From positions 1,741,914 to 1,805,913 of the forward strand of contig OZ244786.1 of NCBI GenBank assembly GCA_965219675.1: a stretch of 64,000 bases of DNA, read 5' to 3'. The notes under the pieces are model-generated. The model did no database searches and was not told the DNA's origin. It worked only from the letters and a program-made list of their open reading frames with translations. This DNA comes from Candidatus Multivorans sp. (GTDB lineage: Bacteria > Acidobacteriota > Thermoanaerobaculia > Multivoradales > Multivoraceae). The position numbers were made by a program, and so were the translations under genes. Numbering within the stretch: the stretch's first letter is position 1; each line of letters opens with the position of its first letter. Of the stretch, positions 1 to 52,078 are shown one piece after another.

Positions 1-77
1 AGCAAGCACTGGAGCGTCTTCCACCGAGCAGGGGCGGAGTCGAGGCGGAGTACTGGCGTGCCCGACTGGGTGCGGCC

Positions 78-1577
78 ATGGAGGCTCTTTCACGCTGTGT
101 CGTGCGTCTCGATTCCCACGAAGTGGAGGAAGTGCTGGAACTTGCAAAGCGCCTCTACGGTGACGCTCGAGTGACGGCCGATCTGAGCTTCTGGGATGCC
201 CTGCGGAATCTCCTCCAGAGATCGTGGGAGGCTCTGCCTCGTACAACCCAGGAGCGACACGTACTCGATCTGCTAGGGCTACCTATCGTCGGGCTCGACG
301 ACTTCTCGGTGGGCCGGCCAGTTGCCAAGTTCCGGGAACCTGCCTGGATACTGGAGCGGCCCTCGGACGATAGGCGATGTCCTGCTCCCGAGCGCTCCGA
401 AGAGAATGCGCAACAGTGGCGAGCAGTAGTAGACCTTCTGATCCGAGCCTTGGAGGCCGGCGGCGAGGCCCGGGAACGAGCCTCGGGACGACTTTCGGTG
501 ATGGCGTCATGGAAGCGGTTCACAGTCGCAGAAGAGATTGGGCTAGCGGCCGCATTGTGGGGGTCGAGTTGGCAGCAGACTTCCATGCTCCCGGAGAACA
601 CGAAGCTCCGGCCGTGGGTGTTCGCCAAGCTGCCTGAGCCCAAGCCGGGTGTCGCGCTGGAGCGGCTTCGTGCCTCATGGGGCGACCGGCTCGACTGGAG
701 CCAGGTGGGGCAGGAGGCCCACGAGAAGCTGCTCGCGAATGCAGGAGATGCCCTCGCTGCGCTTCGGCAGCGCGGTGTTCGACTCGCGCTCACGAGCGAC
801 GAAGTGGAAGTCTTGCGTATGGCCGTGGAGCGCTGGGCAGAGTCGGATCTGCATCCGATCCTGCCCTGGGAAGCGTCTGAGAAGGCCCGCCCGCGAGCCG
901 AGGCACTGTACGGTGTAGCGACGTTGCTGCTCAAGTTTGAGGTGTCGCCGGTCGCCGCTCGGGCTTTGGGGCAGCGCGTGCGACAGGAACGCGACGCAGA
1001 GACTCCAGCCTACCAACTGACGCCCGGGATTCTGCGCTCGGATGGTGCGCAGCTTGATGCGCTCGCCTCGCTGCTCCGGACCGGGCTCGCCAGCACGGTC
1101 AGAGCTGCGCTTGACAGTGCCGCCAGTGGTCTGTTCCTCTGGCTTCGGGAAGCGAGGCGATCTGAGCCATTTGTCCCGGCGGTCCCAGAGGAGGTGCTTG
1201 CCGAGATTGGCGTCATTCTCGCCAATCGAAGGTGGCCTTCTATCTCTAGTGCTCTGCAAATCGCTGCCTGGGTCTACGGGGACGGGAGTGCCGAGCAACG
1301 CGCTGTTCTAAGGGCGCCCCTGTTGGAGAGCCTCGGGCAGTTCATCGAAGAGCTCGTGTACGAGGAAGACTTCGACCAGCACCCTTTCTTCAAGCGACCG
1401 TGGGTCGATCACGAGGAGGTCGATGTGCCGCTGCTTCGCTGGCGCTGCGCCAAGCTGGCGATGGCGATGGAGGCCGCTGGTCTGGGGGAGGAGCCAGTCG
1501 TAGCGAGGTGGATTAGAGAGGCGGAGAGGGATCCATTACCTGAGATGCGGTACATCGCGGAGGGATGGGAGGGCTAG
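78..1577 (+). CDS. Hypothetical protein, predicted all-alpha-helical and about 500 aa. The reading frame stays open to position 1, so the gene may start upstream of the window.
   Basis: 499-aa ORF with no recognisable catalytic motifs. There is no in-frame stop between nt 3 and the first ATG at 78. It is convergent with the TIR gene. Confidence 0.5.
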   Translation: MEALSRCVVRLDSHEVEEVLELAKRLYGDARVTADLSFWDALRNLLQRSWEALPRTTQERHVLDLLGLPIVGLDDFSVGRPVAKFREPAWILERPSDDRRCPAPERSEENAQQWRAVVDLLIRALEAGGEARERASGRLSVMASWKRFTVAEEIGLAAALWGSSWQQTSMLPENTKLRPWVFAKLPEPKPGVALERLRASWGDRLDWSQVGQEAHEKLLANAGDALAALRQRGVRLALTSDEVEVLRMAVERWAESDLHPILPWEASEKARPRAEALYGVATLLLKFEVSPVAARALGQRVRQERDAETPAYQLTPGILRSDGAQLDALASLLRTGLASTVRAALDSAASGLFLWLREARRSEPFVPAVPEEVLAEIGVILANRRWPSISSALQIAAWVYGDGSAEQRAVLRAPLLESLGQFIEELVYEEDFDQHPFFKRPWVDHEEVDVPLLRWRCAKLAMAMEAAGLGEEPVVARWIREAERDPLPEMRYIAEGWEG

Positions 1578-1822
1578 CACGGAGCCGATGGCGACGTGCG
1601 AAACGGGACTCCCCCGTGCGCGCCACAATGCCAAGTCTCAACGCGCCCCCGCGGACCGCCGTTGCAGAAGAGAAGAACCCGAAGGAGCAACGCCTCTACT
1701 GCGATCCTCGAGTGCGAGGACGATTGCCACCGGCCACAGTGTTCCGAGGTCGATGTCGTGGGCCACCGCGTATCGGTTGTCGAAGCGAGGAAGAACCTCT
1801 TGGAGGTGTTGGAGATTGGCGA

Positions 1823-2719
1823 TCACTTTCCCGTCGGCGACTCGCCGTCCTCTCGGATGATCTGAATGCGCCCGTTCCCAAGGTGCAGGACACAACTGGG
1901 TTCGCCACGTACTACAACCACGGTCGCCATCGGCCAGTCGACTAGCTCTCCCCCTATCGTGCGCTGTAACTCCTCAGGACGTCCATGCACCGTCCAGCCC
2001 TGCACGCGAAGCTCCTCAAGCTGCTCCGAGAGTTGACTGGCAGCCTCCGCTCGCTGAAGTGGGCCAAGCTCGTCCCAAATGTCCGACCAGTCGGTCAGAT
2101 CCTGCTGGAAGCCGCCGATAAGGCTCACGTCCTCGTCGCGCGGCTCGTCCTTGAAGAAGAAGAAAGCGCATCGACCCAGCAGCTCCGCGAGTTCAGCTCC
2201 TGTCGTGATACGAGCAACTTCGGCCTTCTGGAGGTCTTCCGCTAGTTCCTGAACATGTGTGATTGCCTGCTGAAGAAGATCAGGCGCGATGACTCTCAGC
2301 AATCCCGTAACGACCACGGAGATTCCGTCCTGCCACTTTAGAGCTACACGATCCGCTAAGCGCGGCGAGTGGCGACGCACGTCTTCCGCGTCAACGTCAT
2401 GCCAAACAGGAAGGATGAGATTCTGTCCGTCTTGCTCCCGCTGCGCCAACCCGTCGAGTTCCGACTCCGGATAGTGCTTCCCGAAGAAGCTCTCGGAGAG
2501 TATGACTACACCGAACTTGCATCGCGTCAGCCCGGCATCGACCTTCCTCCGTAGGCGATCTCCGACACGGAGTTCCATCTCGTCGTACCACACTCGAAGC
2601 CCCAGGTCGCGGAGGAAGGTGGCCAAGGGCCGAGCCACTTCTTCTTGATCTTCCCACGCATAGCATACGAAGACATCCCATTCCTTGGTTTCTTCGCTGG
2701 TGGTTTCGGCTTTCGGCAT
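1823..2719 (-). CDS. TIR-domain protein: an N-terminal TIR domain plus an uncharacterised C-terminal domain of about 140 aa.
   Basis: The track ORF is 1823..2815. I chose the internal ATG at 2719, which gives MPKAETTSEETKEWDVFVCYAWEDQEEVARPLATFLRDLGLRVWYDEMELRVGDRL...VVILSESFFGKHYPESELDGL...ILPVWHDVD. These are the classic bacterial TIR box motifs, including the SxxFxxSxxxxxEL glutamate region. Confidence 0.8.
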   Translation of the reverse strand: MPKAETTSEETKEWDVFVCYAWEDQEEVARPLATFLRDLGLRVWYDEMELRVGDRLRRKVDAGLTRCKFGVVILSESFFGKHYPESELDGLAQREQDGQNLILPVWHDVDAEDVRRHSPRLADRVALKWQDGISVVVTGLLRVIAPDLLQQAITHVQELAEDLQKAEVARITTGAELAELLGRCAFFFFKDEPRDEDVSLIGGFQQDLTDWSDIWDELGPLQRAEAASQLSEQLEELRVQGWTVHGRPEELQRTIGGELVDWPMATVVVVRGEPSCVLHLGNGRIQIIREDGESPTGK

Positions 2720-2971
2720 GGCGGGCTGTGTCCTAGATGATGGTTCGCCGCGGGTGCTCGTTGATCTGGCAGGCGACGGGCCGACGCTGTCTTTGTAGGC
2801 GGGCGGGAGCTGCACCCCATCGCCGGAGCGCTGAGAGGGCCTTCAGGAGCGTCCCAGACGCCCCGGCCCGGCAGATCCCGTCCGTAACTGGCGACCTGGA
2901 TACTGCCACAGGACCGTGCTCCGGGCGCCGCTGCGTCGGTAGTAGCCGGCTCTCATAGGCTACGCGCCGTC

Positions 2972-5236
2972 GTGGAGTTCCGTATCGCCGACACGTTCAC
3001 CGCCAGCCTCGCTCGCCTGCGGGCGGACGAGCAGAAGGCCGTCAAGACGACGGCGTTCGACCTGCAGGTGAATCCGGCGCGGCCGGGGCATCGCCTGCAT
3101 CGGGTCGAGTCGGCGCGGGACAGGAAGTTCTGGTCGGTGCGGGCGGGCCGGGACCTGCGGATCATCGTCCATCGGACGGCGGCGGACTTCCTGCTCTGCT
3201 ATGTGGATCATCACGACCGGGCGTACCGCTGGGCAGAGCGGCGACGCCTGGAGCGGCATCCGCGCACGGGCGCGGCGCAGTTGGTGGAGATTCGGGAGGT
3301 CGTTCGGGAAGTCACTCTAGAGGTAGAGGTGCCGTTCCCCGTGCCGTCGCAGCCGGAGGCGACGGCCCTCGAAGACGCGGTAGAGGCGTCGCCGGCGCCT
3401 GTGTCTGCGCCCGTCGAGGTGCCTTCCGGGGGTCCTGCTGCGTCTGCTGCCGCAGCGCCGCCGGCCGAACCGGCGAAGCTGGCCGGGCCGCCTCTGTTCG
3501 CCAACCGGACGGACGAGGAGTTGTCGAGCTACGGTGTGCCGGCCGACTGGATCGGCGAGGTGCGGACGGCCACGGAGGAGTCGCTGCTCGAGACGGCGGA
3601 GCACCTGCCGGCGGAAGCCGCCGAGGCGCTCTTGGAACTGGCTAAGGGGGGCACGCCGGCGATTCCGCCGCCATTGCCTCCGGCCGCGGACCCATTCGAT
3701 CACCCCGACGCCGGGCGGCGGTTCCGGACGATGGCCGACCGCGAGGAACTCGAACGGGCCCTGGACGCGCCGTGGGAGAAGTGGACGGTCTTCCTGCATC
3801 CGACGCAGCGGGAACTGCTCGAGCGGGACTACGGTGGCCCGGCGCGGGTCGCGGGGTCGGCGGGGACCGGCAAGACGATCGTGGCGTTGCACCGGGCGGT
3901 GCATCTTGCGTCGGAGGATCCGGATTCCCGCGTGCTGCTCGCGACGTTCTCGACGCCCCTGGCCAACGCGTTGCAACGGCGATTGAGGCTGCTGCTCGGC
4001 AGTCGACCGCGTCTGGGCGAGCGAATCGAGGTCCACTCGATGGCCGGTCTTGCGGAGCGCCTCTACCGACTCAACCTCGGATCGCTCAGCCAGGCGTCCG
4101 AAGAGCAGCAGCGCGAGTTGCTCCGCAGCGCGGCCGCGAACGTCGCGGACGACGGCTTCTCGCACCGCTTCCTCTGGGCGGAGTGGAGCGGCGTGGTGGA
4201 CGCCTGGCAGCTCGGGAACTGGGAGGAGTACCGGGCCGTGCCGCGTCTCGGTCGTCGGACCCGGCTGGCCGAAGCTCGCCGGGAGGTTCTTTGGAGGATC
4301 TTCGCCAAGGTGCGGGACGAACTGGAGAGACAGGATTTCCTGACGACCGCCGGCATGTTCCGCAGGCTGGAGGACCACTTCAATCACGCTCGGAAACCGC
4401 CCTTCGACTACTGCGTGATCGACGAGGCGCAGGACATCAGCGTCGCCGAGCTGCGGTTCCTGGCGGCGCTCAGCGAGGATCGGCCGAACAGCCTGTTCTT
4501 CGCCGGCGACCTGGGCCAGCGCATCTTCCGCGCGCCGTTCTCGTGGCGGAAGCTGGGCGTCGATGTGCGGGGCAGGTCGCACACGCTGCGGGTCAACTAC
4601 CGCACGTCGCACCAGATTCGCCGGCAGGCGGATCGCCTGCTGCCGGCCAGGATCGCGGACGTCGACGGCATCGAGGAGGAACGGCGGGGCACGGTGTCCG
4701 CGTTCAACGGACCGGCGCCGGAGATTCGGGTTGTCGAGTCCGAGGAAGCGGAGATTGCGGACGTGAGCGAATGGCTTCGCGATCTGCTGCAGGCGGCGGG
4801 AACGTCCTTTTCGGAGGCAAGGCCCGATGACGCCGATGAAGACGCAGGCGGACTGCGCCCTGGAGAGACCGCTGTCTTCGTCCGGTCGTCACGCAAGGTC
4901 GAACGTGCGCTTCGGGCAGTGGCGGCGGTGGGACTTGACGCTGCCCCATTGGACGCGGGCGAGACCACGGGGCCGGGCTTTGTGGGTGAGGCGGTCGTCG
5001 TGGGCACGATGCACCGCGCCAAGGGTCTGGAGTTCCGCGCCGTTGCGGTCATGGCATGCGACGACGAGGTGTTGCCGCTCCAGGCGAGGATCGAGAACGT
5101 TGTGGACGAGGCGGACCTGGAGGACGTCTACAACACGGAACGCCATCTGCTGTACGTGGCTTGCACCCGTGCCCGCGAACATCTCCTGGTAACCGGCGTC
5201 AAACCGGCCTCTGAGTTCTTGGACGACCTGACGTAG
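2972..5236 (+). CDS. Superfamily-1 UvrD/Rep-like DNA helicase with an N-terminal RelE/ParE-like toxin-fold domain and an Ala/Pro-rich linker.
   Basis: GTG start. The N-terminal ~100 aa read ...RKFWSVRAGRDLRIIVHRTAADFLLCYVDHHDRAY, a RelE/ParE-like pattern. Helicase motifs are present: Walker A GSAGTGKT, motif II VIDEAQD, motif IV-like NYRTS and motif VI TMHRAKGLEF. Confidence 0.85.
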   Translation: MEFRIADTFTASLARLRADEQKAVKTTAFDLQVNPARPGHRLHRVESARDRKFWSVRAGRDLRIIVHRTAADFLLCYVDHHDRAYRWAERRRLERHPRTGAAQLVEIREVVREVTLEVEVPFPVPSQPEATALEDAVEASPAPVSAPVEVPSGGPAASAAAAPPAEPAKLAGPPLFANRTDEELSSYGVPADWIGEVRTATEESLLETAEHLPAEAAEALLELAKGGTPAIPPPLPPAADPFDHPDAGRRFRTMADREELERALDAPWEKWTVFLHPTQRELLERDYGGPARVAGSAGTGKTIVALHRAVHLASEDPDSRVLLATFSTPLANALQRRLRLLLGSRPRLGERIEVHSMAGLAERLYRLNLGSLSQASEEQQRELLRSAAANVADDGFSHRFLWAEWSGVVDAWQLGNWEEYRAVPRLGRRTRLAEARREVLWRIFAKVRDELERQDFLTTAGMFRRLEDHFNHARKPPFDYCVIDEAQDISVAELRFLAALSEDRPNSLFFAGDLGQRIFRAPFSWRKLGVDVRGRSHTLRVNYRTSHQIRRQADRLLPARIADVDGIEEERRGTVSAFNGPAPEIRVVESEEAEIADVSEWLRDLLQAAGTSFSEARPDDADEDAGGLRPGETAVFVRSSRKVERALRAVAAVGLDAAPLDAGETTGPGFVGEAVVVGTMHRAKGLEFRAVAVMACDDEVLPLQARIENVVDEADLEDVYNTERHLLYVACTRAREHLLVTGVKPASEFLDDLT

Positions 5237-5265
5237 AGCCACAGCCTGCCGATAGTCTCAGCCGC

Positions 5266-6306
5266 ATGGCAATCACCCGACTCCGGCTGCAGCGCTTTAG
5301 CGCCTTCGACGACTTCGACTTCGAACCCTCACCGGGCATCAACGTCCTGATCGGCGCCAACGGCACGGGCAAGACCCACCTGATGAAGGTCGCCTATGCC
5401 GCGTGCGATGTCAGCAAGACGGGCACCTCATTCGCTGAGAAGCTCATCCGGGTGTTCCTTCCGTCCGGCGGCGCTCTGGGCCGCTTGGTCAAACGGCAGC
5501 AGGGCAGCTCTCGGTGTGGGATCGAGATCCATCGGCGCCGGGGGCGGGGTTCTGCGAAGCTGACGGCGTCCTTCTCGAATCACGCGTCGGTGCCGAAGTC
5601 CGCGACGGTCAGGGGCACCAAGAACTGGTACGGCGCGCCGCTTGAGAGCGTCTTCATTCCCGTCAAGGAGATGCTGGCCAACGCGCCAGGATTCCGCTCT
5701 CTCTACTCCCAGCGAGAAGTTCACTTTGAGGAGGTGTATGCGGACATCCTCGATCGCGCCTACCGGCCGGCGTTGCGGGGCGCGCCCGATCAGTACCGGA
5801 AGCGGCTCATGGAGATCCTGCAGCGCGCGATGGCGGGCACGGTCACCGTGCGCAACGAGGAGTTCTTTCACTACAGCAGGCAGGGCCGTTTGGAGTTCTC
5901 GCTCCTTGCGGAAGGTATGCGGAAGCTGGGGCTGCTCTGGCTGCTGGTTCAGAACGGGACCTTGCTCAAGGGATCGGTGCTCTTCTGGGACGAGCCCGAG
6001 ACGAATCTTCATCCCAAGCTCTTCGGTGGGCTCGCCGACATCTTCGGCCAACTCCAGCAGGCGGGCATCCAGATCTTCCTCGCCACGCACGACTACACGA
6101 TGCTGAAGGAACTCGACCACAGGGTTGCGGGGCGAAGGGAGAGCGAGATCACGTTCCATTCTCTGTACCGCGAATCCGATAGCGGAAGGGTCCTTTGCAA
6201 GGGTTCAAGGAGTTACGCCGCCATTGCTCCGAACACGATCGCGGATGTCTTCTCCGATCTCTACGACAGGGAGGTCGCGCGCAGCCTAAAGGACCTCGGC
6301 CGATGA
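5266..6306 (+). CDS. ABC-type ATPase of the AAA_21/AAA_15, OLD/SMC-like class. It has the ATPase domain only, with no fused nuclease.
   Basis: Walker A LIGANGTGKTHL, Walker B/D-loop LFWDEPETNLHP and H-loop FLATHD. It starts 30 nt after the helicase stop. Confidence 0.8.
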   Translation: MAITRLRLQRFSAFDDFDFEPSPGINVLIGANGTGKTHLMKVAYAACDVSKTGTSFAEKLIRVFLPSGGALGRLVKRQQGSSRCGIEIHRRRGRGSAKLTASFSNHASVPKSATVRGTKNWYGAPLESVFIPVKEMLANAPGFRSLYSQREVHFEEVYADILDRAYRPALRGAPDQYRKRLMEILQRAMAGTVTVRNEEFFHYSRQGRLEFSLLAEGMRKLGLLWLLVQNGTLLKGSVLFWDEPETNLHPKLFGGLADIFGQLQQAGIQIFLATHDYTMLKELDHRVAGRRESEITFHSLYRESDSGRVLCKGSRSYAAIAPNTIADVFSDLYDREVARSLKDLGR

Positions 6307-6716
6307 TCAACCTGCAGGAGGGCGATCTGCGCGTCACGCTTCCAGGGTTGGGACGGGCGAGGAAGTTCGACGACTCGGCGAACCACGGCTTGAGCCACTG
6401 CATGAAGGCCGTCGACTTCGTCGTGGAGTTCGAGCGGAGCCGGCTGTTCCTGGAGATCAAGGATCCGGGGCATCCTCGGGCACGGTCGTCGGACCGGGCC
6501 TCCTTCGTGCAGAGGTTCCAGTCCAGTCGGCTGGACGGCGACCTCGTCCAGAAGTATCGCGACTCGTTTCTCTACGAGTGGGCTTGCGAGAACCTCGAGA
6601 AGCCGATTCACTATTGGGTTCTCGTGGGCATCGACAGCCTCGGCCCGCCCGACCTCCTCGCTAGGACCGACGCGCTCAAGAGGAGGCTGCCGGTCGGGAA
6701 GGCAACGGGGTCGTAG
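6303..6716 (+). CDS. Small hypothetical protein of about 137 aa, probably a partner of the upstream ATPase and possibly a nuclease-like module.
   Basis: ATG at 6303 overlaps the ATPase stop (ATGA), which suggests translational coupling. Sequence features are MINLQEGDL... and VDFVVEFERSRLFLEIKD, a D..E.K arrangement reminiscent of PD-(D/E)xK. The ORF-track start at 6195 has an arginine-rich extension that is probably not real. Confidence 0.5.
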   Translation: MINLQEGDLRVTLPGLGRARKFDDSANHGLSHCMKAVDFVVEFERSRLFLEIKDPGHPRARSSDRASFVQRFQSSRLDGDLVQKYRDSFLYEWACENLEKPIHYWVLVGIDSLGPPDLLARTDALKRRLPVGKATGS

Positions 6717-6945
6717 CTTCGGCCGATCGTGTCGGACTGTCGCGTGTTCACACCGGGAAGCTGGAACCGAACGCTTCCTGACGGCTACACGGTCACTCGG
6801 GTCTCGGTCTAGGCAGGCGGACCTCGGTGGGCCGAGCGGCGGGGCGTGGAGCGGCATCCGCGGACCGGGGTCGGACCGACGTCGGAGTTTCTGGACCACC
6901 TGGCGTGAGGTGCGCGGAAGGCTCCGGTTGTAGGCTGTCGCGGTC

Positions 6946-8061
6946 ATGTCGGCGATCAGCAACCTCACGATCGAGGGGTTCAAGAGCTTCCGGCGCCTGG
7001 AGCGGCTGGAACTTGGTCCGCTGAACCTTCTGATCGGCGCCAACGGTTCGGGCAAGTCGAACCTCCTCGCGGCCTTCGACCTGCTCGCGAGGGCGTGCAG
7101 CGCTCAGCAGCTCTCGGTCTATGTGGGGAAGGCGGCCGGCGCCGACCGCCTGCTGCACTACGGCCCCAAGATGACGCAGAGCATCCGCTTCCAAGTCGGT
7201 TTTGAGGACGGGCTGGCTGGTTTCACTCTCCTCCTGCGGCACGCTGCCGAGAACCGTCTCTTCTCGAGTTTGAGTATCGAGGGAGGCGAGTTGCCGAGAG
7301 ACTTCGTCGACCAACTTGAGGTGGAGGCCGGCGTTGCCCCGCTCAGTGAGTTTCTCGACCTGAGGCTGGCGGGCTGGCAGGCGTATCACTTCGCCGACAC
7401 GGGTCGGGCTTCGCCCATTAAGACGACGGCGAACCTCAACGACAACCGGCGCCTGCGGCCCGACGGCGCCAATCTCGCCGCGTTCCTGCACCTGCTGCAG
7501 GTGAGGCACAGGATCGCCTATGGCCAGATCCGCCGGACGGTCCAGTTGGCGGCGCCCTTCTTCGATGACTTCGTTCTCGCGCCGCTGGCCCTCAATCCGG
7601 AGACCATCCAACTCGAGTGGCGGCACGTCCGCTCCGACGCCCACTTTGGCGCGTCCTCGTTGTCGGACGGAACCTTGCGGTTCATGGCGCTCGCGACACT
7701 GCTTCTTCAGCCAGCCCAACTCCGGCCCAAGCTGATCCTGCTCGACGAGCCGGAACTTGGCCTGCATCCGTATGCGGTCACCCTCCTCGCAGCCATGCTC
7801 AGAGAGGCGTCGGTGGAGTCGCAGCTCGTTGTGGCGACTCAGTCGCCATTGCTTCTCGACCATTTCGAGCCGGAAGAGGTGCTGGTGACGGACCGCCAAG
7901 ACGGCGCCACGACCGTCCGAAGGCTGTGCAGCGAGAGTCTGAAGGTGTGGTTGGACGAGTACAGCCTGGGTGAACTCTGGGAGAAGAACGAGTTCGGCGG
8001 CCGGCCCGTTCCCGAAACTTCCGGCGAAGGTGCACAGGCCCGGCTCACCGCGAGCGTTTGA
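6946..8061 (+). CDS. Second ABC-type ATPase of the AAA_21 class, a paralogous fold to the 5266 gene.
   Basis: Walker A LLIGANGSGKSNLL, signature-like SDGTLRFMALATLL, Walker B LILLDEPELGLHP and VVATQSP. The 371-aa ORF is separated from upstream genes by 230 bp. Confidence 0.8.
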   Translation: MSAISNLTIEGFKSFRRLERLELGPLNLLIGANGSGKSNLLAAFDLLARACSAQQLSVYVGKAAGADRLLHYGPKMTQSIRFQVGFEDGLAGFTLLLRHAAENRLFSSLSIEGGELPRDFVDQLEVEAGVAPLSEFLDLRLAGWQAYHFADTGRASPIKTTANLNDNRRLRPDGANLAAFLHLLQVRHRIAYGQIRRTVQLAAPFFDDFVLAPLALNPETIQLEWRHVRSDAHFGASSLSDGTLRFMALATLLLQPAQLRPKLILLDEPELGLHPYAVTLLAAMLREASVESQLVVATQSPLLLDHFEPEEVLVTDRQDGATTVRRLCSESLKVWLDEYSLGELWEKNEFGGRPVPETSGEGAQARLTASV

Positions 8062-8172
8062 ACGGGTCGGGTCGGGACCGCGGAGAACCGCGTCTGGCAT
8101 AAGCTCCCCGCCGCCCCGCGGCCGGAGGAGCGGACGTCACTCCTGTTCCGGTCTGACCTGAGGAGACCCTTC

Positions 8173-8592
8173 ATGGCACTGAACACCTACCTGACCTTCG
8201 ACGGCAACTGCCGGGAGGCCTTCGACTTCTACCGTTCCGTCTTCGGCGGCGAGTTCTCGGACTTCAACACGTTCGGCGAAGGCCCGGAAGGCCTGCCGCT
8301 CGCCGAGGGCCAGGAGGACCAGATCATGCACGTGGCCCTGCCGGTCGGTGACAGCGTGCTATTGGGGAGCGACAGCACGACGTTCGGGCCGCCGCTTGAG
8401 GTCGGCAACAACTTCTCGATCTCGGTGGAGGCCGAGAGCCGGGAACGGGCCGACGAACTGATCGCGAAGCTGTCGGACGGCGGCGCGGTGACGCTGCCGA
8501 TGGAGGACCAGTTCTGGGGCGCCTACTTCGGCATGTGCGTGGACCGCTTCGGCGTGAACTGGATGCTGGTGTACGCACCGCCGCAGGAGTAG
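8173..8592 (+). CDS. VOC-family protein of the PhnB-like type (glyoxalase/bleomycin-resistance fold).
   Basis: 139-aa ORF ...DQIMHVALPVGDSVLLGSDS...DQFWGAYFGMCVDRFGVNWML. A Shine-Dalgarno GAGGAG lies 7 nt upstream. Confidence 0.8.
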   Translation: MALNTYLTFDGNCREAFDFYRSVFGGEFSDFNTFGEGPEGLPLAEGQEDQIMHVALPVGDSVLLGSDSTTFGPPLEVGNNFSISVEAESRERADELIAKLSDGGAVTLPMEDQFWGAYFGMCVDRFGVNWMLVYAPPQE

Positions 8593-8624
8593 GAGGAAAG
8601 CAGGGCTTTCGCCAACACGGAGCC

Positions 8625-8630
8625 AAAGGA
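8625..8630 (+). promoter_or_regulatory. Shine-Dalgarno sequence AAGGAG for the epimerase gene.
   Basis: 9-nt spacing to the ATG at 8640. Supports the internal start. Confidence 0.55.
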
Positions 8631-8639
8631 GCCATCACG

Positions 8640-9740
8640 ATGTCCGCCATCTCACCCAACGACGGTCCGGTCGCCGTCACCGGCGTCTCCGGTTTCACCG
8701 GCGGCCACATGGTGCGTGATCTCGTCCTCCAGGGTTATGCGGTCCGGGCCTGCCTGCGCAACGCGGATTCCTGGCGCGGCCGGGACTGCGTCGAGTACCT
8801 GAACGGGCTGCCCAACGTCGAGATCGTGGACGGCTGCGATCTGTTCGTGCCCGGTTCGTACGACGAGGCCTTCGCCGGTTGCTCGGGCGTGTTCCACGTC
8901 GCAGCGGTGCTCGGCAACTCGGCGGACGGCAAGTCCCAGCCGCTCGGCTCGGGCAACGTGTCGACGGACGTCTACGAGGGCGGCATGGCCGGGACGCGGA
9001 ACGTGATCGACTCGGTCAACCGGAGCGACAGCGTGAAGCGGGTCGTGTACACGAGTTCCCTCGCGGCGGTCGCCGGCCTGGGGGCGCCGGCGATGCCTCC
9101 GGGCTACGCGTGGACCGAGACGGACTGGGCTTCCGGCAACTTCCCGGAGGAGGTCTGGAACCACCCGCGGATGGCCTATGCCCGCAGCAAGGTCGATACC
9201 GAGCGGCTGCTGAACCAGGCCGCGGACGACAGCGGCGGCACCTGGGACGTGGTGACGGTGAACCCCGCGATGATCTGCGGGCCGATCCTGTTCAAGGCCC
9301 AGGTCGGCCAGTGGATCGAGCAGATCGGCCGCCTGGCCGCGGGACAGGCAACGTCTTGGCCGACGCCGTACGACATGTACTACAACATCATCGACGTGCG
9401 CGACCTGGTCAAGGCGGAACGGCTGGCGGCCGAGTCGGACGTGGACCACCGGGCGTCGAACGGCGGCAGCCGATACCTCCTGCACGGCAGCGGCGGCCGT
9501 TCCGCTCTCCGGCTCGGCACGGAAGTGCGCGGGATCATCCAGCAGCTCTTCCCGGGCTTCGTGGTCGGCGAGCCGGAAGTGCCCGAAGGGGGCACGCCGC
9601 CCCCGGCGGCCATCAACCACAGCAAGAAGGCGGAGTCGGTGCTGGGCGCCACCCTTCGGCCCGTGGAAGACACGATCCGGGCCGTCGTGGAGACGTCGGT
9701 CGAGCTGGGCATCATCGAGCCGCGGTTGCGGGGGGCCTGA
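8640..9740 (+). CDS. NAD-dependent epimerase/dehydratase (extended SDR family).
   Basis: Rossmann motif VTGVSGFTGGHMV and catalytic YARSK (YxxxK). The internal ATG at 8640 is preceded by the Shine-Dalgarno AAGGAG. The track ORF's 5' part from 8535 is arginine-rich junk. Confidence 0.85.
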   Translation: MSAISPNDGPVAVTGVSGFTGGHMVRDLVLQGYAVRACLRNADSWRGRDCVEYLNGLPNVEIVDGCDLFVPGSYDEAFAGCSGVFHVAAVLGNSADGKSQPLGSGNVSTDVYEGGMAGTRNVIDSVNRSDSVKRVVYTSSLAAVAGLGAPAMPPGYAWTETDWASGNFPEEVWNHPRMAYARSKVDTERLLNQAADDSGGTWDVVTVNPAMICGPILFKAQVGQWIEQIGRLAAGQATSWPTPYDMYYNIIDVRDLVKAERLAAESDVDHRASNGGSRYLLHGSGGRSALRLGTEVRGIIQQLFPGFVVGEPEVPEGGTPPPAAINHSKKAESVLGATLRPVEDTIRAVVETSVELGIIEPRLRGA

Positions 9741-9763
9741 TCGCGGTTCCGGGGCTGAGGCCA

Positions 9764-11131
9764 TTGAGGATTCTCCTCGTCGTTCCCCTGTTCGCGCTCG
9801 TGTGGGGCGGTGCGCTCCGGGCCGACGATCCGAATCCCGGGCGGAATCGGGTGGCCGAGGCGGAGAGCCTGCCGGTCACCTGGGACATCTCGTCCGGCGA
9901 TGGCGTGCTCTGGACGGCCAAGCTCGGTACGGTGACCTACGGCGGGCCGACGATCGCCGGCGATCTGATCGTCGTCGGCACGAACAACGAGCGGCCCCGC
10001 GACCCGGCGGTTGTCGGCGACCGTGGCGTGGTGATGGCCTTCGACCGCCGTGACGGCGGGTTCCGCTGGCAGATCACCCACGAGAAGCTGGAAGCCGGGG
10101 ACGCGAACGACTGGCCGCTCCAGGGCGTGTGCTCGACGCCGTCGTTCGACGGCGAGCGGCTCTACTACGTCTCGAACAGGGGGGAGGTCGTGGCCGCGGA
10201 TCTCGCCGGTAGCGTCGACTGGTCGTTCGACATGGTGACCGAGTGGGGGGTCTTCCCGAAGCACATGGCGGCGTCGACCCCGCTCGCCGTGGGCGATCTG
10301 GTCTTCGTGTCGACCAGCAACGGCGTCACGGACGACGGCCGGGTGCCGGCGCCGGAAGCGCCGAGCTTCGCGGCGTTGGAGCGTGCGACGGGCCGGCCGG
10401 TATGGCGCGACGGCAGTCCCGGCGCGGCGCTGATCGACGGCCAGTGGGGGAGCCCGTCCCACGGTCGCGCCGGCGGTCGGGACCACGTCGTCTTCCCGGG
10501 CGGTGACGGCTGGCTCTACGGATTCGAGCCGGGGACGGGACGGCCGCTCTGGCGGTTCGACGGCAACTCGGCGCTCGCCGCCGACGAGTTGGATCGAAGC
10601 GAGTCGCGGCACGTCTTCGTGGCCACGCCGGTACTGCACGATGGCACCGTCTACATCGCGGCCGGCCGGGACCCGGAGGCGTCGCTCCGGGCCGGCGTCC
10701 TGTGGGCCGTCGACACGGCAGGCGACGACGACGTGACGGGGAGCGGGGTGCGGTGGCGATTCGAGGATCCGGACTTCGGGCGCGCGATCGCCACCGTGGC
10801 GGTGGACGGCGGCATCGCCTACGCCGCGGACCTGAACGGCTTCCTCTTCGCGCTCGACGCGGCGAGCGGCGAGAAGCTCTGGACATACGACGCGCTGGCG
10901 CCGTTCTGGAGCTCGCCCCTGGTCGCCGACGGCAAGGTCTACGCCGCCGACACGGAGGGCGATGTTGCCGTGCTCCGGGCCGGCCCAACCCTAGAGATCC
11001 TTGCTGAGAACGAGTTCCCGGGAGCGGTGTACACTTCGCCGTCCACGGATGGCTCGGTCGTCTACCTTGCGACCAGCGAAACGCTATATGCGCTGGTCGC
11101 CCGAGCTTCGGGCGGCGGCACGGACGGTTGA
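9764..11131 (+). CDS. Secreted PQQ-like beta-propeller repeat protein (BamB/PQQ-repeat family), paralog 1.
   Basis: The C-terminal part of the 8879..11131 track ORF. The start is probably TTG at 9764 (or CTG at 9755), giving a signal peptide LRILLVVPLFALVWGGALRA. Repeats include NDWPLQGVCSTPSFDGERLYYVSNRGEVVAADL. Confidence 0.7.
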   Translation: MRILLVVPLFALVWGGALRADDPNPGRNRVAEAESLPVTWDISSGDGVLWTAKLGTVTYGGPTIAGDLIVVGTNNERPRDPAVVGDRGVVMAFDRRDGGFRWQITHEKLEAGDANDWPLQGVCSTPSFDGERLYYVSNRGEVVAADLAGSVDWSFDMVTEWGVFPKHMAASTPLAVGDLVFVSTSNGVTDDGRVPAPEAPSFAALERATGRPVWRDGSPGAALIDGQWGSPSHGRAGGRDHVVFPGGDGWLYGFEPGTGRPLWRFDGNSALAADELDRSESRHVFVATPVLHDGTVYIAAGRDPEASLRAGVLWAVDTAGDDDVTGSGVRWRFEDPDFGRAIATVAVDGGIAYAADLNGFLFALDAASGEKLWTYDALAPFWSSPLVADGKVYAADTEGDVAVLRAGPTLEILAENEFPGAVYTSPSTDGSVVYLATSETLYALVARASGGGTDG

Positions 11132-19068: not shown

Positions 19069-20361
19069 GTGTTCGCGGCTTCTTCCTACGATCTGATCGT
19101 GATCGGCGCCGGACCGGGCGGCTCGGCGGCTGCCGCCATCGCCTCGCGCGGAGGCCTGCGCACGCTTCTGCTCGAGCGCGAGCCGGCGCCGAACTTCAAG
19201 ATCGGCGAATCCCTGATGCCGGACACGCACGGCGTGTTCGAGAAGATGGGCGCGTTGGAGCGGATGAAGAGCAGCCACTTCGTGGAAAAGCACTCGGTTC
19301 AGTTCTTCACCAGGACGGGCAAGGCGTCCATGCCGTTCTACTTCGAGAAGGAAAGGCCGGGGGACGACAGCGCTCGGACCTGGCAGGTGCGCCGCTCGGA
19401 GTTCGATCAGCTCCTGATGGAAACGGCCGCCGAGCAGGGCGCGGAGGTGCACAGGGGGGTCAATGTACGCGACGTGCTGTTCGAGGACGGTCGGGCGATC
19501 GGCGTGCGTGCCGCGGCCGCGGACCACGGCGACCCGGTTGAGCTCGCGAGCCGGGTCGTCATCGACGCCACCGGCCAGAGCGCGCTGCTGTCGCGACGCC
19601 TCAACCTTGGTCGGGTGGACTACGGTCTAAGGCACGCCTCGATCTACACCCATTTCCGCGGCGCGCTCCGGGACGAAGGAAAGGACGAGGGCGCGACCCT
19701 GATTCTGCACACGGAGTCCGGTGAGTGCTGGTTCTGGTACATCCCGCTGGCCGGGGATGTGGTCAGCGTCGGGGTCGTCGGACCGATGGACGCCCTGATT
19801 CGGAACCGTGACGGAAGACCGCACGAGATCTTCTTCGAGGAGGTCGGGAACTGCGCCGAGATCGAGCGGCGGATCGGGCCAGCCCGCCAGTGCCGTCCGG
19901 TATCGGTGATGAAGGACTTCTCCTACCGGATCGAGGAGATGGCCGGTAACGGCTGGATCGCGATCGGCGACGCGTTCTCCTTCATCGATCCCGTGTACTC
20001 ATCCGGCGTGTTCCTGGCTCTCAAGTCCGGCGAGATGGCGGCGGAGGCCGCGATCGACGCGATTGCCGCCGGCGATGCCTCGGGTGAGCGTCTGGGAGCG
20101 TTCCAGCCGCTGCTGATGCGGGGCGTCGAGGCGGTGCGTCAGTTGGTCAACGTCTTCTACGACCCGAACTTCAGCGTCGGCGCCTTTCTGCGGCTGTATC
20201 CGCAGCACCAGAGCAAGGTGACGCGCATTCTGATCGGCGACGTGTTCGAACTGGACTTCACCTCCATGTTCGAGGACATGGCGACCTTTGCCGCAGCGGG
20301 GGGTGGCCGAATCGCTCAGCCGGCGGCGGGCGAGACGGCCCGGGCCGTACCCGTGTCCTGA
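19069..20361 (+). CDS. Flavin-dependent halogenase-like FAD oxidoreductase (tryptophan-halogenase / geranylgeranyl-reductase superfamily).
   Basis: FAD-binding GxGxxG in LIVIGAGPGGSAAA. WxWxIP motif (CWFWYIPL). FxxPxxSxG-like GDAFSFIDPVYSSGV. Confidence 0.8.
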   Translation: MFAASSYDLIVIGAGPGGSAAAAIASRGGLRTLLLEREPAPNFKIGESLMPDTHGVFEKMGALERMKSSHFVEKHSVQFFTRTGKASMPFYFEKERPGDDSARTWQVRRSEFDQLLMETAAEQGAEVHRGVNVRDVLFEDGRAIGVRAAAADHGDPVELASRVVIDATGQSALLSRRLNLGRVDYGLRHASIYTHFRGALRDEGKDEGATLILHTESGECWFWYIPLAGDVVSVGVVGPMDALIRNRDGRPHEIFFEEVGNCAEIERRIGPARQCRPVSVMKDFSYRIEEMAGNGWIAIGDAFSFIDPVYSSGVFLALKSGEMAAEAAIDAIAAGDASGERLGAFQPLLMRGVEAVRQLVNVFYDPNFSVGAFLRLYPQHQSKVTRILIGDVFELDFTSMFEDMATFAAAGGGRIAQPAAGETARAVPVS

Positions 20362-20393
20362 CCGGCGTCTGAACGGGGAACGGAACGGAATCC

Positions 20394-20678
20394 ATGGCGG
20401 CGACGGTAGTTCGGCGGCTGGCGTACGCGACCCTGGCGGTTCTGTACGTGCTCCACAACGATCTCTGGTTCTGGTCCGACGGTGACCGCTTTCTCGGGCT
20501 GCCGATCGGATTGACTTACCACATCCTCTTCACGGCGGCGGTCGTTCTGGCCATGTGGTGGCTGGTTCGAGAGGCATGGCCCGCCGCCAGCCTGGATCGC
20601 CTGGCGGCCGGCGCCGGAACCGAGCCGGCCGCGGACATCGGCGTAGGGCACGGCGGGTCTCCCGAAGGTTCCGGATGA
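20394..20678 (+). CDS. Small two-TM membrane protein of the DUF3311-like type that typically precedes sodium:solute symporters.
   Basis: 94-aa hydrophobic ORF ...LAYATLAVLYVLHNDLWFW...LTYHILFTAAVVLAMWWL. Its stop overlaps the start of the symporter (ATGA). Confidence 0.6.
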   Translation: MAATVVRRLAYATLAVLYVLHNDLWFWSDGDRFLGLPIGLTYHILFTAAVVLAMWWLVREAWPAASLDRLAAGAGTEPAADIGVGHGGSPEGSG

Positions 20679-22132
20679 CTCTGGCCATCATCTTCGTCTA
20701 TCTGCTCGCGGTGCTTCTGATCGGTGCCTGGAGCAGCCGGCGGCTCGCCGCGACGGGCGAGGACTTCTTCGTCGCCGGGCGGACGATCGGTCCGTTCGTG
20801 CTCCTGATGACCCTGTTCGGCACCCACATGACCTCGTTCGCCCTGCTCGGCGCCTCGGCGGAGTCGTACCGGGTAGGGATCGGCGTCTTCTCCCTGATGG
20901 CGTCGTCGTCGGCCCTGATGGTGCCCGTCGTGTTCTTCTTCGTCGGCACCCGGGTCTGGGCGGTCGGCAGCCGCCTGGGGCTTCTCACCCAGGTCCAGTT
21001 CGTGCGCGCGCGCTGGGGCTCGGACACGGTCGGCCTGCTGCTGTTCATCGTGCTCGTCCTGCTGCTCGCCCCCTACCTGCTGATCGGCGTGATGGGCGGC
21101 GGCATCACGCTCCAGCAGATCACCGACGGCGGAGCGCCGCCGTGGCTCGGCAGCCTGCTGATTTCCGGCGTCGTGATCGGCTACGTGACGAGCGGCGGTC
21201 TACGTGGAACGGCCTGGGTGAACACCTTCCAGACGGCGATGTTCATGCTGCTCGGCGCGGTGACGGCGATCCTGATCGTCACGAAGCTGGGGGGCGTGGG
21301 GAAGGCGCTCGACCAGGTCGCCGCGACGCGGCCGGAGCTGTTGATACGCGGCGACGCGATCCACCCGCTGCGGCTGCTCAGCTACACCCTGATCCCGTTG
21401 TCCGTCGGGACGTTCCCCCACATCTTCTCGCACTGGCTTTCCGCACGGCGGGCATCCACGTTCAAGGCCCCGATCGTGCTCTACCCGGTTTGCATCGCCA
21501 TGGTGTGGATCCCAAGCGTGCTGTTGGGTCTGTTCGGGAACATCGACTTTCCCGGGCTCGCCGGACCAGCCTCCAACTCGGTCCTGATTCGAATGATCAC
21601 CCTGTACGCTCCCGATCTTCTCGCCGGTTTGCTCGGTGCGGGGGTCTTCGCCGCGATCATGTCGTCGCTCGACTCGCAGTCGCTGTCCCTGGGGACGATG
21701 TTCACCCAGGACATCGTGCGCCACTACCGCTGGGGAGGCGACCTGAGCGACTCCCGCCAGGTTCTGCTTGGCCGGCTGTTCGTGGTCGGCGTCGTGGCTG
21801 CCGTCTTCCTCCTTTCCCTGGTCGCCGAGCGGAGCATCTTCGCGCTGTCGGTATGGTCCTTCACGGGCTTTGCCTCGCTGTTGCCCATCATCGTCGCGGC
21901 GCTCTACTGGCGCCGCAGCACGGCCGCGGGGGCCGCCGCCGCGATCGTCACCGTGATCGTGCTCTGGATCTGGTTCTTCGTTCGCGGGTTCGGTCAGCCG
22001 GACTACAGCGTGGGCGGCAGCGGCGTGATGCCGGTGGCCGTGATCTTTGCCGGCTCGGTCGCGGCTCTGGTCGTCGGTTCCCTGTCCAGCAGGCCGCCCG
22101 GTGCCGAGCGGGTGGCACGTTTCATCCCATGA
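20675..22132 (+). CDS. Sodium:solute symporter (SSS family).
   Basis: The internal ATG at 20675 gives MTLAIIFVYLLAVLLIGAWSSRRLAATGEDFFVAGR... with multiple TM segments. The 5' part of the track ORF from 20555 is arginine-rich junk. Confidence 0.85.
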   Translation: MTLAIIFVYLLAVLLIGAWSSRRLAATGEDFFVAGRTIGPFVLLMTLFGTHMTSFALLGASAESYRVGIGVFSLMASSSALMVPVVFFFVGTRVWAVGSRLGLLTQVQFVRARWGSDTVGLLLFIVLVLLLAPYLLIGVMGGGITLQQITDGGAPPWLGSLLISGVVIGYVTSGGLRGTAWVNTFQTAMFMLLGAVTAILIVTKLGGVGKALDQVAATRPELLIRGDAIHPLRLLSYTLIPLSVGTFPHIFSHWLSARRASTFKAPIVLYPVCIAMVWIPSVLLGLFGNIDFPGLAGPASNSVLIRMITLYAPDLLAGLLGAGVFAAIMSSLDSQSLSLGTMFTQDIVRHYRWGGDLSDSRQVLLGRLFVVGVVAAVFLLSLVAERSIFALSVWSFTGFASLLPIIVAALYWRRSTAAGAAAAIVTVIVLWIWFFVRGFGQPDYSVGGSGVMPVAVIFAGSVAALVVGSLSSRPPGAERVARFIP

Positions 22133-24219: not shown

Positions 24220-27200
24220 GTGAGTGCGTCCAGGCCCGGCGGAACTCTGCCCAGTCTGCGGCACTACTGGCGCTCGAACGTCGCCGTCGTGATGACTGCC
24301 GCCGTCGCGGCGTCCGTGCTCACCGGCGCCCTGATGGTTGGCGACTCGGTGCGAGGAAGCCTGCGGGATCTGACCCTGGACCGTCTTGGCGGCATCGACC
24401 ATGCACTCCTCGGCGCCGGCTTCTTTCGCGAGGCGTTGAGGGACGACCTGACGGATGATCCCGAGTTCGCTTCCCGATACGGCCCCGTGTCGGCGGCGAT
24501 CCTGATGCAGGGGAACGTGGTAGAGCCCGAGAGCGGCCGGCGCGCGGCGCGCGTCAATGTCCAGGGGATCGACGACAGCTTTGCCGCCTTCTTTCCGGGA
24601 ATGGAGGAGACCCTCGACCTGTCCCGGCGGGACGGTCAACTGTTCGCGTCGCTGGCGATCAACCGGTCGCTCGCCTCGGCTCTTGCCGTCGAGCCCGGTG
24701 ACTCCGTTCTGCTCCACCTGGAGCGTCCGAGCGAGGCGCCGCGCGCCAGCCTGATGGGGGAGAAGGATCCCGAAGACCAGTTGGAGAGCGTGCGGCTGAG
24801 CGTGGTCACCGTGCTGGAAGACGTTGGCGCGGGACGGTTCCAGCTCGCCCAGCACCAGAGCCAGCCGCTGGTTGCCTATCTCCGCCTGCGCGACCTGCAG
24901 CGGGAACTCGATCGCCGCGGCCTCGCCAACGCGTTGTTGGTGGGCGAGCGGGCGAGCACCGGGTCCGGTCCGGTTGCCGACCCGGAGGCCGCGATAGAGG
25001 ACGTCGAGCGCCGCATCCGCACCCACGCCGAGGTGGCCGACTTCGGACTCACGCTCGAGGCGACAGACGATCACCTGCTCGTGACGACGTCCCAGATCAT
25101 TCTCGGCGCCGAGTTGGCCGGGGAGCTCCAGGCTGCGGCCTCGGCGGCTGGCGCCGAAGCGATCGAGGTCTCGACCTACCTCGCCAACCTGGCGGCGGCG
25201 GACAGCGGCGCGGCCGCACCGTACTCGACGATCACGGCACTCGACACGGCGCGCGCTGGCCGACTTGGCGCCCTGCGGCTCACGGACGGCCGACCGGCTC
25301 CCGGGCTCGGGCCGGGTGAGGTGCTCGTCAACTCCTTTCTGGCCGAAGATCTCGCGGTCGGAACGGGCGACCGACTGGCGATCGACTATTTCCAGCTTGG
25401 CGACCGGGAGCAGTTGATCGAACGGACGGTCGAGACCAGGGTCGCCGGAGTCGTCGAGATGACGGGCTGGGGCGTCGACCGAACGTTGACGCCGGACTTT
25501 CCCGGGGTCGCCGACGCGGACAACATGAGCGACTGGGATCCGACCTTTCCGGTCGATCTGAGCCGGATCCGGGATCAGGACGAGGCCTACTGGGACGAGT
25601 TCCGCGCCACCCCCAAGCTGTTCGTCGGTCTGGACTACGGGGCCGGGCTCTGGTCGAGCCGCTTCGGCCACCTGACCTCCCTGCGGCTTCTGCCGCCGGA
25701 AGGCACGACACCGGCAGAACTCCGGGAGAGGCTCGAAGAGGGGTTGCCGGACCGGGTCGCGCTCCACGCGGCAGGTCTCGCGGTGGAACCGGTCAAGGCC
25801 AGGGGCCTGCGCGGCGCGTCGGGGGCTACGGACTTCGGCGGCCTCTTCGTGGGCTTCAGCCTCTTTCTCATCGTGTCGGCGGCGTTGCTGGTAGGTCTTT
25901 TCTTCCGGCTGGGAACCGAGAGCCGCGCGAACGAGATGGGACTCCTGCTTGCGCTTGGCTACGGTGTCGCAAGGGTCCGGCGCCGCTTCCTGCTCGAAGG
26001 AGCCCTTCTGGGCGGCGCTGGCGTGCTCCTCGGCCTGGGCGGCGCGGTGCTCTATGCGGGCGCCATGATGACCGCGCTGCGGACCCTGTGGCGCTCCGCG
26101 GTCGGCTCGAGTCACCTCTACCTGCACGTCGAACCCCTGACGCTGGTCTTGGGCGGCGCGGCGTCCATTCTGGTCGTGCTGTTCGCGATCCGGGGTGCCG
26201 TCGGCCGCCTTGCCGCGGTCTCGCCGATCCGGCTGCTGCGCGGAGAGACGTCGGACCGGCCGGCCGCGGCGCGGACGCGGGGGCGACGGGCCCGCTGGAC
26301 CGCGAGCGTTGGCGGCGGGGTCGCCGCGGTGCTCCTCGGGGCCTCGGCGGTGGCGCCGGCGTCCATCGCTGCCTACCTGTTCTTCGGTGGCGGCGCCTGC
26401 CTCCTGATCGCCGGCCTGGCCGGCTTCACCCTCTGGCTCCGAAGGCGGCCCCCGGCGCCGCTCGAGAGCTGGTCCTTGCGGGCCGGTTCAAGAATGGCCG
26501 CGGCCAACGCCTCTCTCAATCCGGGCCGGAGTCTGCTTTGTGCGGCCCTGGTAGCCAGCGCATCGTTCGTGATCGTGGCCGTAGGCGCCTATGGCTTGCG
26601 CTTCGGCGAGGAGACGCGCGATCTCGACTCGGGCGCCGGCGGCTTCGACCTGGTCGCGGAAGCGGACGTTTCGATTCTCGCCGATCTCACCACGGTGAAT
26701 GGACGCTACGAGCTGGGGTTCGGCGAGGAAGGGTCCGGGCTCATCGGACAGAGTCAGGTCATCGCCTTCCGTACCGTGCCCGGTGACGACATCAGTTGCC
26801 TGAACCTGTTCCAGCCGGAACGACCGCGGTTGCTGGGGGCGCCGCCGGAACTCATCGAACGGGGCGGCTTCCGGTTCCAGGCGCTCGCGGAGAACGCCGG
26901 GGATGAGCCGTGGAAACTGCTGGAGGAGGATCTCGGGCCGGGAGTCGTCCCCGCGATCGGCGACTTCAACTCGGTCATGTGGATCCTGCACTCGGGACTG
27001 GGGCAGGGGATCGAGATCGAAACCGAACGGGGCGACACGCTGGAGCTCAGACTGGTCGGATTGCTTCGCAAGAGCGTGTTCCAGAGCGAACTCGTGATTT
27101 CGGAAGCGAACCTGGCAAGGCACTTTCCGAGCCGCACCGGAGCCTCGTACTTCCTGCTGCGGACGCCGCCGGGCGAACGGGACCGGACGTTGGAGGAACT

Positions 27201-52074: not shown

Positions 52075-52078
52075 TGCG

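Follow-up and report, generated by a model that had tools for sequence, protein, structure and literature searches.

The first 8.1 kb of a 64,000-nucleotide stretch of a Candidatus Multivorans sp. chromosome (contig OZ244786.1, positions 1,741,914 to 1,805,913 of the forward strand; the whole stretch is called the window here) hold a dense run of defence-type genes, and raise the question of whether these genes form one new anti-phage system or an assemblage of known ones. A first-pass annotation of positions 1-8100 had proposed an uncharacterised multi-gene defence island, with a TIR gene, a helicase gene bearing a RelE-like N-terminal domain, two ATPase genes, a small nuclease-like gene and, upstream, a gene for a large helical protein. 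All six open reading frames (ORFs) are present at their coordinates, and the defence interpretation of 1-8100 is left standing by a check for conserved housekeeping synteny. Very probably this segment is a genuine anti-phage defence island that is a mosaic of catalogued modules, partly decayed, and not one new multi-gene system. The answer to the question as posed is deflationary: the presumed five- or six-gene system resolves into the known cassettes HEC-02, HEC-01A, Dsr2 and a ThsB-like TIR protein, where HEC stands for Hma-embedded candidate.

Two catalogued cassettes downstream of the helicase gene

The proposal that the gene combination matches no described system does not hold, since PADLOC profiles already cover HEC-02A (1e-116), HEC-02B (1.9e-43) and HEC-01A (2.2e-119). 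HEC-02A (5266..6306, plus strand) is an intact ORF for a 346-aa AAA_21 ABC ATPase (Pfam, 3.9e-22); its residues 1-341 align with positions 1-334 of the 337-position profile PDLC04213, and it carries the Walker A motif GANGTGKT and the Walker B motif LFWDEPE. HEC-01A (6946..8061, plus strand), likewise intact and now orphaned, encodes a 371-aa AAA_21 ABC ATPase (Pfam, 2.7e-28) that matches profile PDLC04175 over its full length and GajA in part (3.5e-16), with Walker A GANGSGKS and Walker B DEPE. Both genes had been described as OLD/AAA_21-type; the ATPase fold is confirmed in each, and the label fails in that neither ATPase has a TOPRIM domain.

The predicted coupling of the first ATPase gene to the small gene is visible as an ATGA overlap at 6303-6306. 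The nuclease-like character of the small protein is also borne out, by the match to HEC-02B, which ends at profile position 136 of 171, and by the residues D38...E51-x-K53, invariant in the family, with the (D/E/Q)xK motif present; the Foldseek result for this protein, taken alone, is weak. In the original work, HEC-02 (Hma-embedded candidate 02) comprises an ABC ATPase and a NERD-like PD-(D/E)xK protein that together reduce plaquing in E. coli, with both genes required (bioRxiv 10.1101/2024.01.29.577857, Payne et al. 2024).

An amber codon interrupts the small gene in the window. The annotated 137-aa protein corresponds to an existing ORF (6303-6716), but it is the truncated product of a 169-codon HEC-02B gene (6303..6812, plus strand) for a NERD-like PD-(D/E)xK nuclease, in which codon 138, at 6714-6716, is an in-frame TAG. 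Homologues are about 169 aa long. Past the TAG the frame stays open for 31 more codons, of which 30 agree with homologue P0241, and then reaches its natural stop (6810-6812); orthologues have TGG (Trp) at the interrupted position, among them the related locus L086. A structure model places strands 139-141, 143-149 and 163-166 and helix 151-157 among the 32 conserved residues that the amber codon removes. Because the tail beyond the TAG is so nearly identical to that of the homologue, the lesion is either very recent or a base-call error. Owing to this codon, HEC-02 is probably inactive here.

The second cassette has lost its partner gene. HEC-01 consists of an ABC ATPase and a TOPRIM protein, and its published representative gave no phage protection (bioRxiv 10.1101/2024.01.29.577857). 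The related loci L001, L002 and L003 have HEC-01A followed by HEC-01B/DUF4276, and the DUF4276 protein of L002 matches HEC-01B at 1.1e-69 and DUF4276 at 2.7e-48. By blastn, window positions 6863-8018 correspond to L001 2516-3672, and there follows a deletion scar (8019..8099): where L001 has 787 nt containing HEC-01B, the window has 81 nt. A tblastn search of the window with the DUF4276 protein gave no match, and no TOPRIM domain was found anywhere in 1-8100, so HEC-01 is certainly incomplete here. With two modules broken, the locus as it stands is a poor choice for cloning.

Between the two cassettes lies a relic of a second helicase copy (6825..6911, plus strand, 87 nt), recognised by blastn and as a direct repeat, which joins codons ~86-100 directly to the final ~15 codons with their stop. 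It matches 5' segments and 3' ends of the helicase genes of L001, L003, L004, L029, L083 and L086 at 80-91% identity, with E values down to 8e-12, and from its stop to HEC-01A the window is collinear with the helicase-stop/HEC-01A junction of L001 and L003. The ORFs of the proposed helicase-ATPase-small protein-ATPase operon are thus in place, but the run is interrupted by a pseudogene fragment.

The helicase as the third gene of a restriction-modification operon

The helicase gene (2972..5236, plus strand) encodes a RelE/ParE-fold N-domain (2972-3300) fused to a superfamily 1 (SF1)/UvrD helicase (Pfam PF00580/PF13361, with a fold search for the N-domain). This agrees with the first-pass description, in which the UvrD assignment is now supported by Pfam domains and the toxin fold is upheld at the level of structure (AlphaFold2, AF2, and Foldseek). 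The family is large, with more than 8000 matches and 54-88% identity over the 80 loci sampled, and its members span Acidobacteriota, Proteobacteria, Planctomycetota, Verrucomicrobiota, Chloroflexota, Actinomycetota and other phyla.

Upstream partners were counted at 50 of these 80 loci, those with enough upstream DNA. A gene for a large N6/N4 methyltransferase (Mod; PADLOC MTase_III, E 0) lies upstream of the helicase on the same strand in 49 of the 50, and a gene for a protein with ResIII and RE_endonuc domains (Res) does so in 45. The Res protein belongs to NCBIfam NF046055, the BPTD_3080 family restriction endonucleases, scoring 1398 bits against a cutoff of 800. On a Pseudomonas plasmid the curated names read BPTD_3080 restriction endonuclease, site-specific DNA-methyltransferase and UvrD-helicase, and the Mod stop overlaps the helicase start. 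The helicase is the conserved third and last gene of BPTD_3080-type Res-Mod-helicase operons.

The junction between Mod and helicase is often occupied. The gap is at most 150 nt in 16 of 64 loci and exceeds 600 nt in 47 (73%); the larger gaps have a median of 2.3 kb and reach 9.9 kb. Genes found in them include IetAS (seven loci), AriA-like genes (five), PtuA of Septu (four), HamB of Hachiman (three), SIR2, Dsr2, AbiJ and HEC-01. IetA/IetS, an AAA ATPase with an S8 protease, is the commonest such cargo, its seven sampled loci including L062 (6468-10001), L006, L009, L012, L065 and L069. A probable second slot lies between Res and Mod: a DUF4160 and DUF2442 pair occupies it in L083 (13924-14554) and L086 (1412-2042), and a small hypothetical gene occupies it on the Pseudomonas plasmid (L085, 7025-7231). 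Helicase 5' fragments, each starting from residue 1, are also seen in the Mod-helicase cargo of three unrelated loci (L007, 8593-8717; L009, 5233-5695; L043, 10001-10132); the L009 fragment directly follows the IetS stop, and the fragments resemble the relic in the window.

Variation at one chromosomal site

Relatives carrying the same chromosomal site, defined by the shared downstream gene order VOC-epimerase-PQQ-PQQ-Fe-ADH, show with unusual clarity how cassettes are gained, lost and left to decay at one spot. L083 reads Res-DUF4160-DUF2442-Mod-TIR (minus strand)-helicase-VOC. L086 likewise begins with Res and, after intervening genes, continues Mod-TIR (minus strand)-helicase-HEC-02A-HEC-02B, followed by a 3' scrap of HEC-01A only. 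L001 and L003 show helicase-HEC-01A-HEC-01B-VOC; L004 has Res-Mod-HEC-01A-HEC-01B-helicase-VOC; L005 has Res-Mod-Dsr2-AbiJ (minus strand)-helicase; and L029 carries AbiJ, on the minus strand, at the TIR position. Window positions 1830-6819 are collinear with L086 at 86% identity. In L086 itself, Mod (2045-5088), helicase (6624-8932) and HEC-02A (8962-10001) each fall in two frames, through decay or long-read indel errors.

The neighbourhood comparison also bears on the suggested unit of helicase, ATPase and small protein, which it does not sustain: HEC genes stand beside the helicase only in the five or six closest relatives, at about 74 of the 80 loci the 10 kb around the helicase are free of HEC genes, and HEC-02 occurs in L087 as a lone two-gene pair among metabolic genes. 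Since the HEC-02 pair stands alone in L087, the TIR gene occurs without the helicase in L084, and contents differ among same-site relatives, the modules appear to be autonomous cassettes. The view that the island is horizontally variable is supported.

The Dsr2-family and TIR genes

The ORF at 78-1577 had been taken as a complete gene for a large unknown helical protein. Its frame (frame 3) is open from nucleotide 3, upstream of the ATG at 78, and the product aligns with residues 753-1253 of the 1261-aa Dsr2 protein of L005 (37% identity, 3e-78), including nine residues before the ATG. This open frame and the homology continuing upstream of the ATG indicate that the window starts inside a Dsr2-family gene (1..1577, plus strand) that runs off the 5' edge, leaving the 3' part, about the last 40%, which corresponds to the C-terminal sensor region. 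The L005 protein matches the PADLOC Dsr2 model at 5.4e-142 and Pfam SIR2_2. The direct NCBIfam Dsr2 match of the window ORF covers profile positions 737-1158 at 6.7e-10, far below the cutoff, and a PDB sequence search with the 78-1577 product gave no match. As described in three papers, Dsr2 depletes NAD+ once its C-terminal solenoid binds a phage tail-tube protein (PMC11087589, PMC10981675, PMC11850899).

On the opposite strand, the TIR gene (1823..2719, minus strand; alternative GTG start at 2815) encodes a 298-aa protein with a TIR domain followed by a conserved C-terminal domain, and is a single-gene defence cargo. The TIR call stands (Pfam TIR_2, 8.5e-19), and the ATG at 2719 is the likely start because the nearest homologues are also 298 aa long. 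PADLOC matches to ThsB (3.5e-29) and PDC-S66 (5.8e-53) involve the TIR part only; the latter covers profile positions 135-263 of 282, and the window protein has its TIR domain first and a different C-terminal domain. Glu87, in the segment ...YPESELDGL..., is invariant among homologues. In L083 and L086 the gene occupies the gap from Mod to helicase, whereas in L084 it lies within a type I restriction-modification (R-M) locus lacking the helicase. A Thoeris-like pairing of the TIR protein with Dsr2 was considered and rejected: the TIR gene occurs without Dsr2 in L083, L086 and L084, and Dsr2 occurs without the TIR gene in L005.

A RelE-like fold at the helicase N-terminus

The N-terminal 110 residues of the helicase are strongly conserved, with 83% column-wise identity over 26 phylum-diverse homologues. 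Sequence profiles gave nothing significant for this domain (Pfam HigB-like, E 0.023; the family profile against PDB, YoeB, E 1.3), and a PDB sequence search with the helicase N-terminus returned chance-level matches only, which made a fold search necessary. The AF2 model (pLDDT 72) has an alpha-alpha-beta4-alpha topology, and its top Foldseek matches in PDB, at least 40 of them, are all RelE, YoeB, YafQ, HigB or ParE toxins (target TM 0.65-0.76); the match to the RelE structure 3bpq_B has an E value of 1.2e-3 and a target TM of 0.76. Invariant polar residues of the domain are H43, D50, R63, H67, H80, H81, D82 and Y85. No cognate antitoxin gene is adjacent, and the 156-nt gap between the TIR and helicase genes contains no ORF. 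A library of 1.84 billion representative sequences holds 2,287 relatives of the domain, always at the N-terminus of longer proteins; no stand-alone form of about 95 aa is present among the best 150 of the 2,287, many entries being fragments, so that this negative is not conclusive.

Proposed organisation and alternative readings

The mosaic reading can be set out as follows. The core of the island would be a type III-like R-M operon of a BPTD_3080-family Res, an N6/N4 Mod and the RelE-fold/UvrD helicase, and positions 1-8100 would be its distal part, with only the helicase (2972-5236) of the core genes inside the window; the gene orders of L005, L083 and L086 lead to the prediction that Res and Mod lie immediately upstream of position 1. 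Nested around the helicase would be self-contained cassettes: a Dsr2-family SIR2 NADase, represented in the window by its sensor end alone, and, on the opposite strand, the TIR protein with its C-terminal domain. On the 3' side of the helicase, HEC-02 (ABC ATPase and NERD-like PD-(D/E)xK nuclease) would be followed by HEC-01 (ABC ATPase, normally with a TOPRIM partner). Each module is expected to act alone. The invariant glutamate suggests that the TIR protein would cleave NAD+ or make a signal from it; the HEC-02 ATPase may sense infection and license its nuclease; and the core, going by its family assignments, would restrict unmethylated DNA. Recombination within the helicase gene may have brought in cassettes and stacked them, leaving remnants of the displaced copy, as the relics in the window, L007, L009 and L043 suggest.

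Several points weigh against this account. Neither Res nor Mod was found in the 64-kb window by tblastn, the window beginning inside an upstream cargo gene, and with both absent from the window and the core decayed in L003 and L029, the helicase may be an orphan. The activities proposed for the TIR protein and for the Res-Mod-helicase core would follow from family membership only. The ORFs of the cargo census were called by a crude greedy method, and the relatives with HEC genes beside the helicase are not independent observations, because they share one lineage and one chromosomal site. The amber codon in HEC-02B could be a sequencing error.

Three other readings were weighed. That the helicase, HEC-02A, the small nuclease and the second ATPase, possibly joined by the TIR protein, make up a single new system working as a unit is suggested by their shared strand and short gaps (29 nt between helicase and ATPase, the ATGA overlap between ATPase and nuclease), by the collinear TIR-helicase-HEC-02AB block in L086 and by the defence helicases that are the top PADLOC matches of the helicase (GajB, 2.6e-22; NERD+UvrD, 1.3e-21). 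It is nevertheless extremely improbable: no HEC gene lies within 10 kb of the helicase at about 74 of 80 loci, the helicase is tied to Mod in 49 of 50 loci and to Res in 45, HEC-02AB stands alone in L087 and is published as a protective two-gene system, the helicase relic separates HEC-02 from HEC-01A, and the sole other genome with the arrangement, L086, belongs to the same lineage and site. A related reading makes the helicase, HEC-01A and HEC-01B of this lineage a split, Gabija-like three-gene system into which HEC-02 was inserted, and might account for the lack of protection by HEC-01 alone in the published assay. The order helicase, HEC-01A, DUF4276/HEC-01B in L001, L002 and L003, the placement of HEC-01AB directly upstream of the helicase in L004, and the GajB-like and GajA/OLD-like matches of the helicase and HEC-01A speak for it. 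We judge it very unlikely, as the adjacency is limited to one lineage and one site, HEC-01 of L004 sits in the ordinary cargo slot that IetAS, Septu and Hachiman use elsewhere, about 74 other loci have the helicase without HEC-01, and HEC-01 was defined from many genomes that lack this helicase; in the window, moreover, the TOPRIM gene is deleted, leaving no working system of this kind.

The remaining reading goes further than decay of single modules and takes the helicase as the degenerate orphan of a lost R-M operon, with the whole segment a non-functional graveyard of defence genes. The missing Res and Mod of the window, the decayed core of L003 and L029, the HEC-02B nonsense codon, the HEC-01B deletion and the helicase relic all fit it. 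It has only a small chance of being right, in that four ORFs (helicase, TIR, HEC-02A and HEC-01A) keep their full length and their motifs, the Dsr2 frame is open to the window edge, the same-site loci L083, L086, L004 and L005 retain Res and Mod, and the near-perfect post-TAG tail of HEC-02B (30 of 31 residues identical to a homologue) marks that lesion as very recent or an error. The partly decayed mosaic of known cassettes is the reading that we prefer.

Composition and surroundings of the island

The segment is less GC-rich than its flanks, as the first-pass annotation had noted: GC is 0.680 in the rest of the window and 0.651 in 1-8100, the latter being the lowest value among 560 sliding 8.1-kb windows. 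The dip is modest and uneven: GC at third codon positions is lowest in the TIR and Dsr2 parts (0.67-0.70), intermediate in the helicase and ATPase genes (0.82-0.88) and highest in neighbouring core genes (0.89-0.93). The right end set near 8100 is also where synteny with relatives begins again; by blastn, window positions 8100-9500 correspond to L001 4460-5859. A tRNA search of the window found none, and the island is without a tRNA-linked integration signature. The promoter and terminator scan was uninformative: it gave 0 promoters, and no more terminators than expected from shuffled sequence.

The remaining window is ordinary chromosome, with genes for Fe-ADH, a TonB receptor, FtsX, an S9 peptidase, two AcrB pumps and a LysM/SLT protein. 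Just beyond the island, the epimerase gene, when taken at its longest ORF (GTG at 8535), extends back into the 3' end of the VOC/glyoxalase gene (8173-8592), and relatives suggest a start near 8640. AT skew is strongly negative (-0.2 to -0.31) in several 1-kb bins (20001-22000, 26001-27000 and 52001-55000), far from the window's typical values. A 1136-aa ORF without a Pfam match occupies 56367-59777 on the minus strand and is overlapped by long plus-strand ORFs (56679-59078 and 58121-59728).

Comparison with known systems

A close likeness is to HEC-02 itself: an ATPase gene coupled to a gene for a small NERD-like protein, with a profile match that is full length for A and strong for B. The window pair differs in that its B gene is cut at codon 138 of 169, in conflict with the requirement for both genes, and in that the cassette stands 3' of the UvrD helicase of another R-M-like operon and not inside an Hma locus. 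HEC-01 is matched over the full length of its A gene, and L001-L004 keep the complete A and B pair at the same site, whereas the TOPRIM/DUF4276 partner is deleted in the window. OLD-family nucleases combine ATPase and TOPRIM in one polypeptide, unlike the window ATPases (346 and 371 aa), which are ATPase only. Gabija uses the three activities that occur side by side in relatives, those of a UvrD-type helicase, of an ABC ATPase and of a TOPRIM domain. However, GajA and GajB are matched only weakly and in part, the ATPase and the TOPRIM protein are encoded separately, with TOPRIM absent from 1-8100, and the window helicase carries a RelE-fold N-domain and is a partner of Res and Mod.

For the upstream genes, the first window ORF aligns over its full length with the C-terminal sensor region of a Dsr2-scoring protein, but at only 37% identity to the L005 relative and with a weak direct Dsr2-profile match, the SIR2 effector part lying outside the window. 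The TIR protein matches the ThsB models of Thoeris, whereas its neighbour is of Dsr2 type and has no SLOG domain, so a ThsA partner is missing. The helicase N-domain shares the fold of RelE, YoeB and ParE toxins, and its conserved C-terminal ...H-H-D-x-A-Y motif recalls YoeB; it differs from them in being fused to a helicase, in having no adjacent antitoxin gene and in giving no significant profile match.

The components of the island are known, and the newer by-products, an embedding platform and the helicase relics, are modestly novel. Platforms of this kind that have been named are Hma, BREX, DISARM and type I R-M (Payne et al. 2021/2024; PMC11232893), and a search of a limited literature collection returned no paper on BPTD_3080 or this RelE-fold/UvrD helicase family. 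It is conceivable, though short of probable, that the Res-Mod-(RelE-fold/UvrD helicase) operon is a phylum-spanning, hitherto undescribed docking platform distinct from those four, in which cassettes are stacked by recombination inside the helicase gene, leaving relics; the invariant RelE-like domain would then be a functional component of an R-M-like system, possibly directed at RNA or the ribosome. If so, unannotated genes in the cargo slot would offer fresh defence candidates. For cassette exchange, the helicase relics found where cassettes meet suggest a specific route that can be tested.

Hma is an analogous platform with a different core. The Hma core consists of HmaA (Snf2/DUF3883 helicase), HmaB (DUF1156 methyltransferase) and HmaC (DUF499 ATPase), as described in the Halomonas Hma study (PMC11232893). 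The core found here was compared with it and rejected as an Hma, no Hma domain or model matching the helicase or the Res and Mod proteins of related loci; the core families differ, being here ResIII/RE_endonuc (BPTD_3080), an N6_N4 methyltransferase and the RelE-fold-UvrD helicase. In both, a multi-gene core that includes a methylase carries varied cassettes between its genes, in 63-67% of Hma loci and 73% of those counted here, and their cargo overlaps in Septu, PARIS/AAA_21 ATPases and HEC-01. The helicase marks a very widespread operon that carries embedded defence genes as Hma does, which extends "guilt-by-embedding" to another core.

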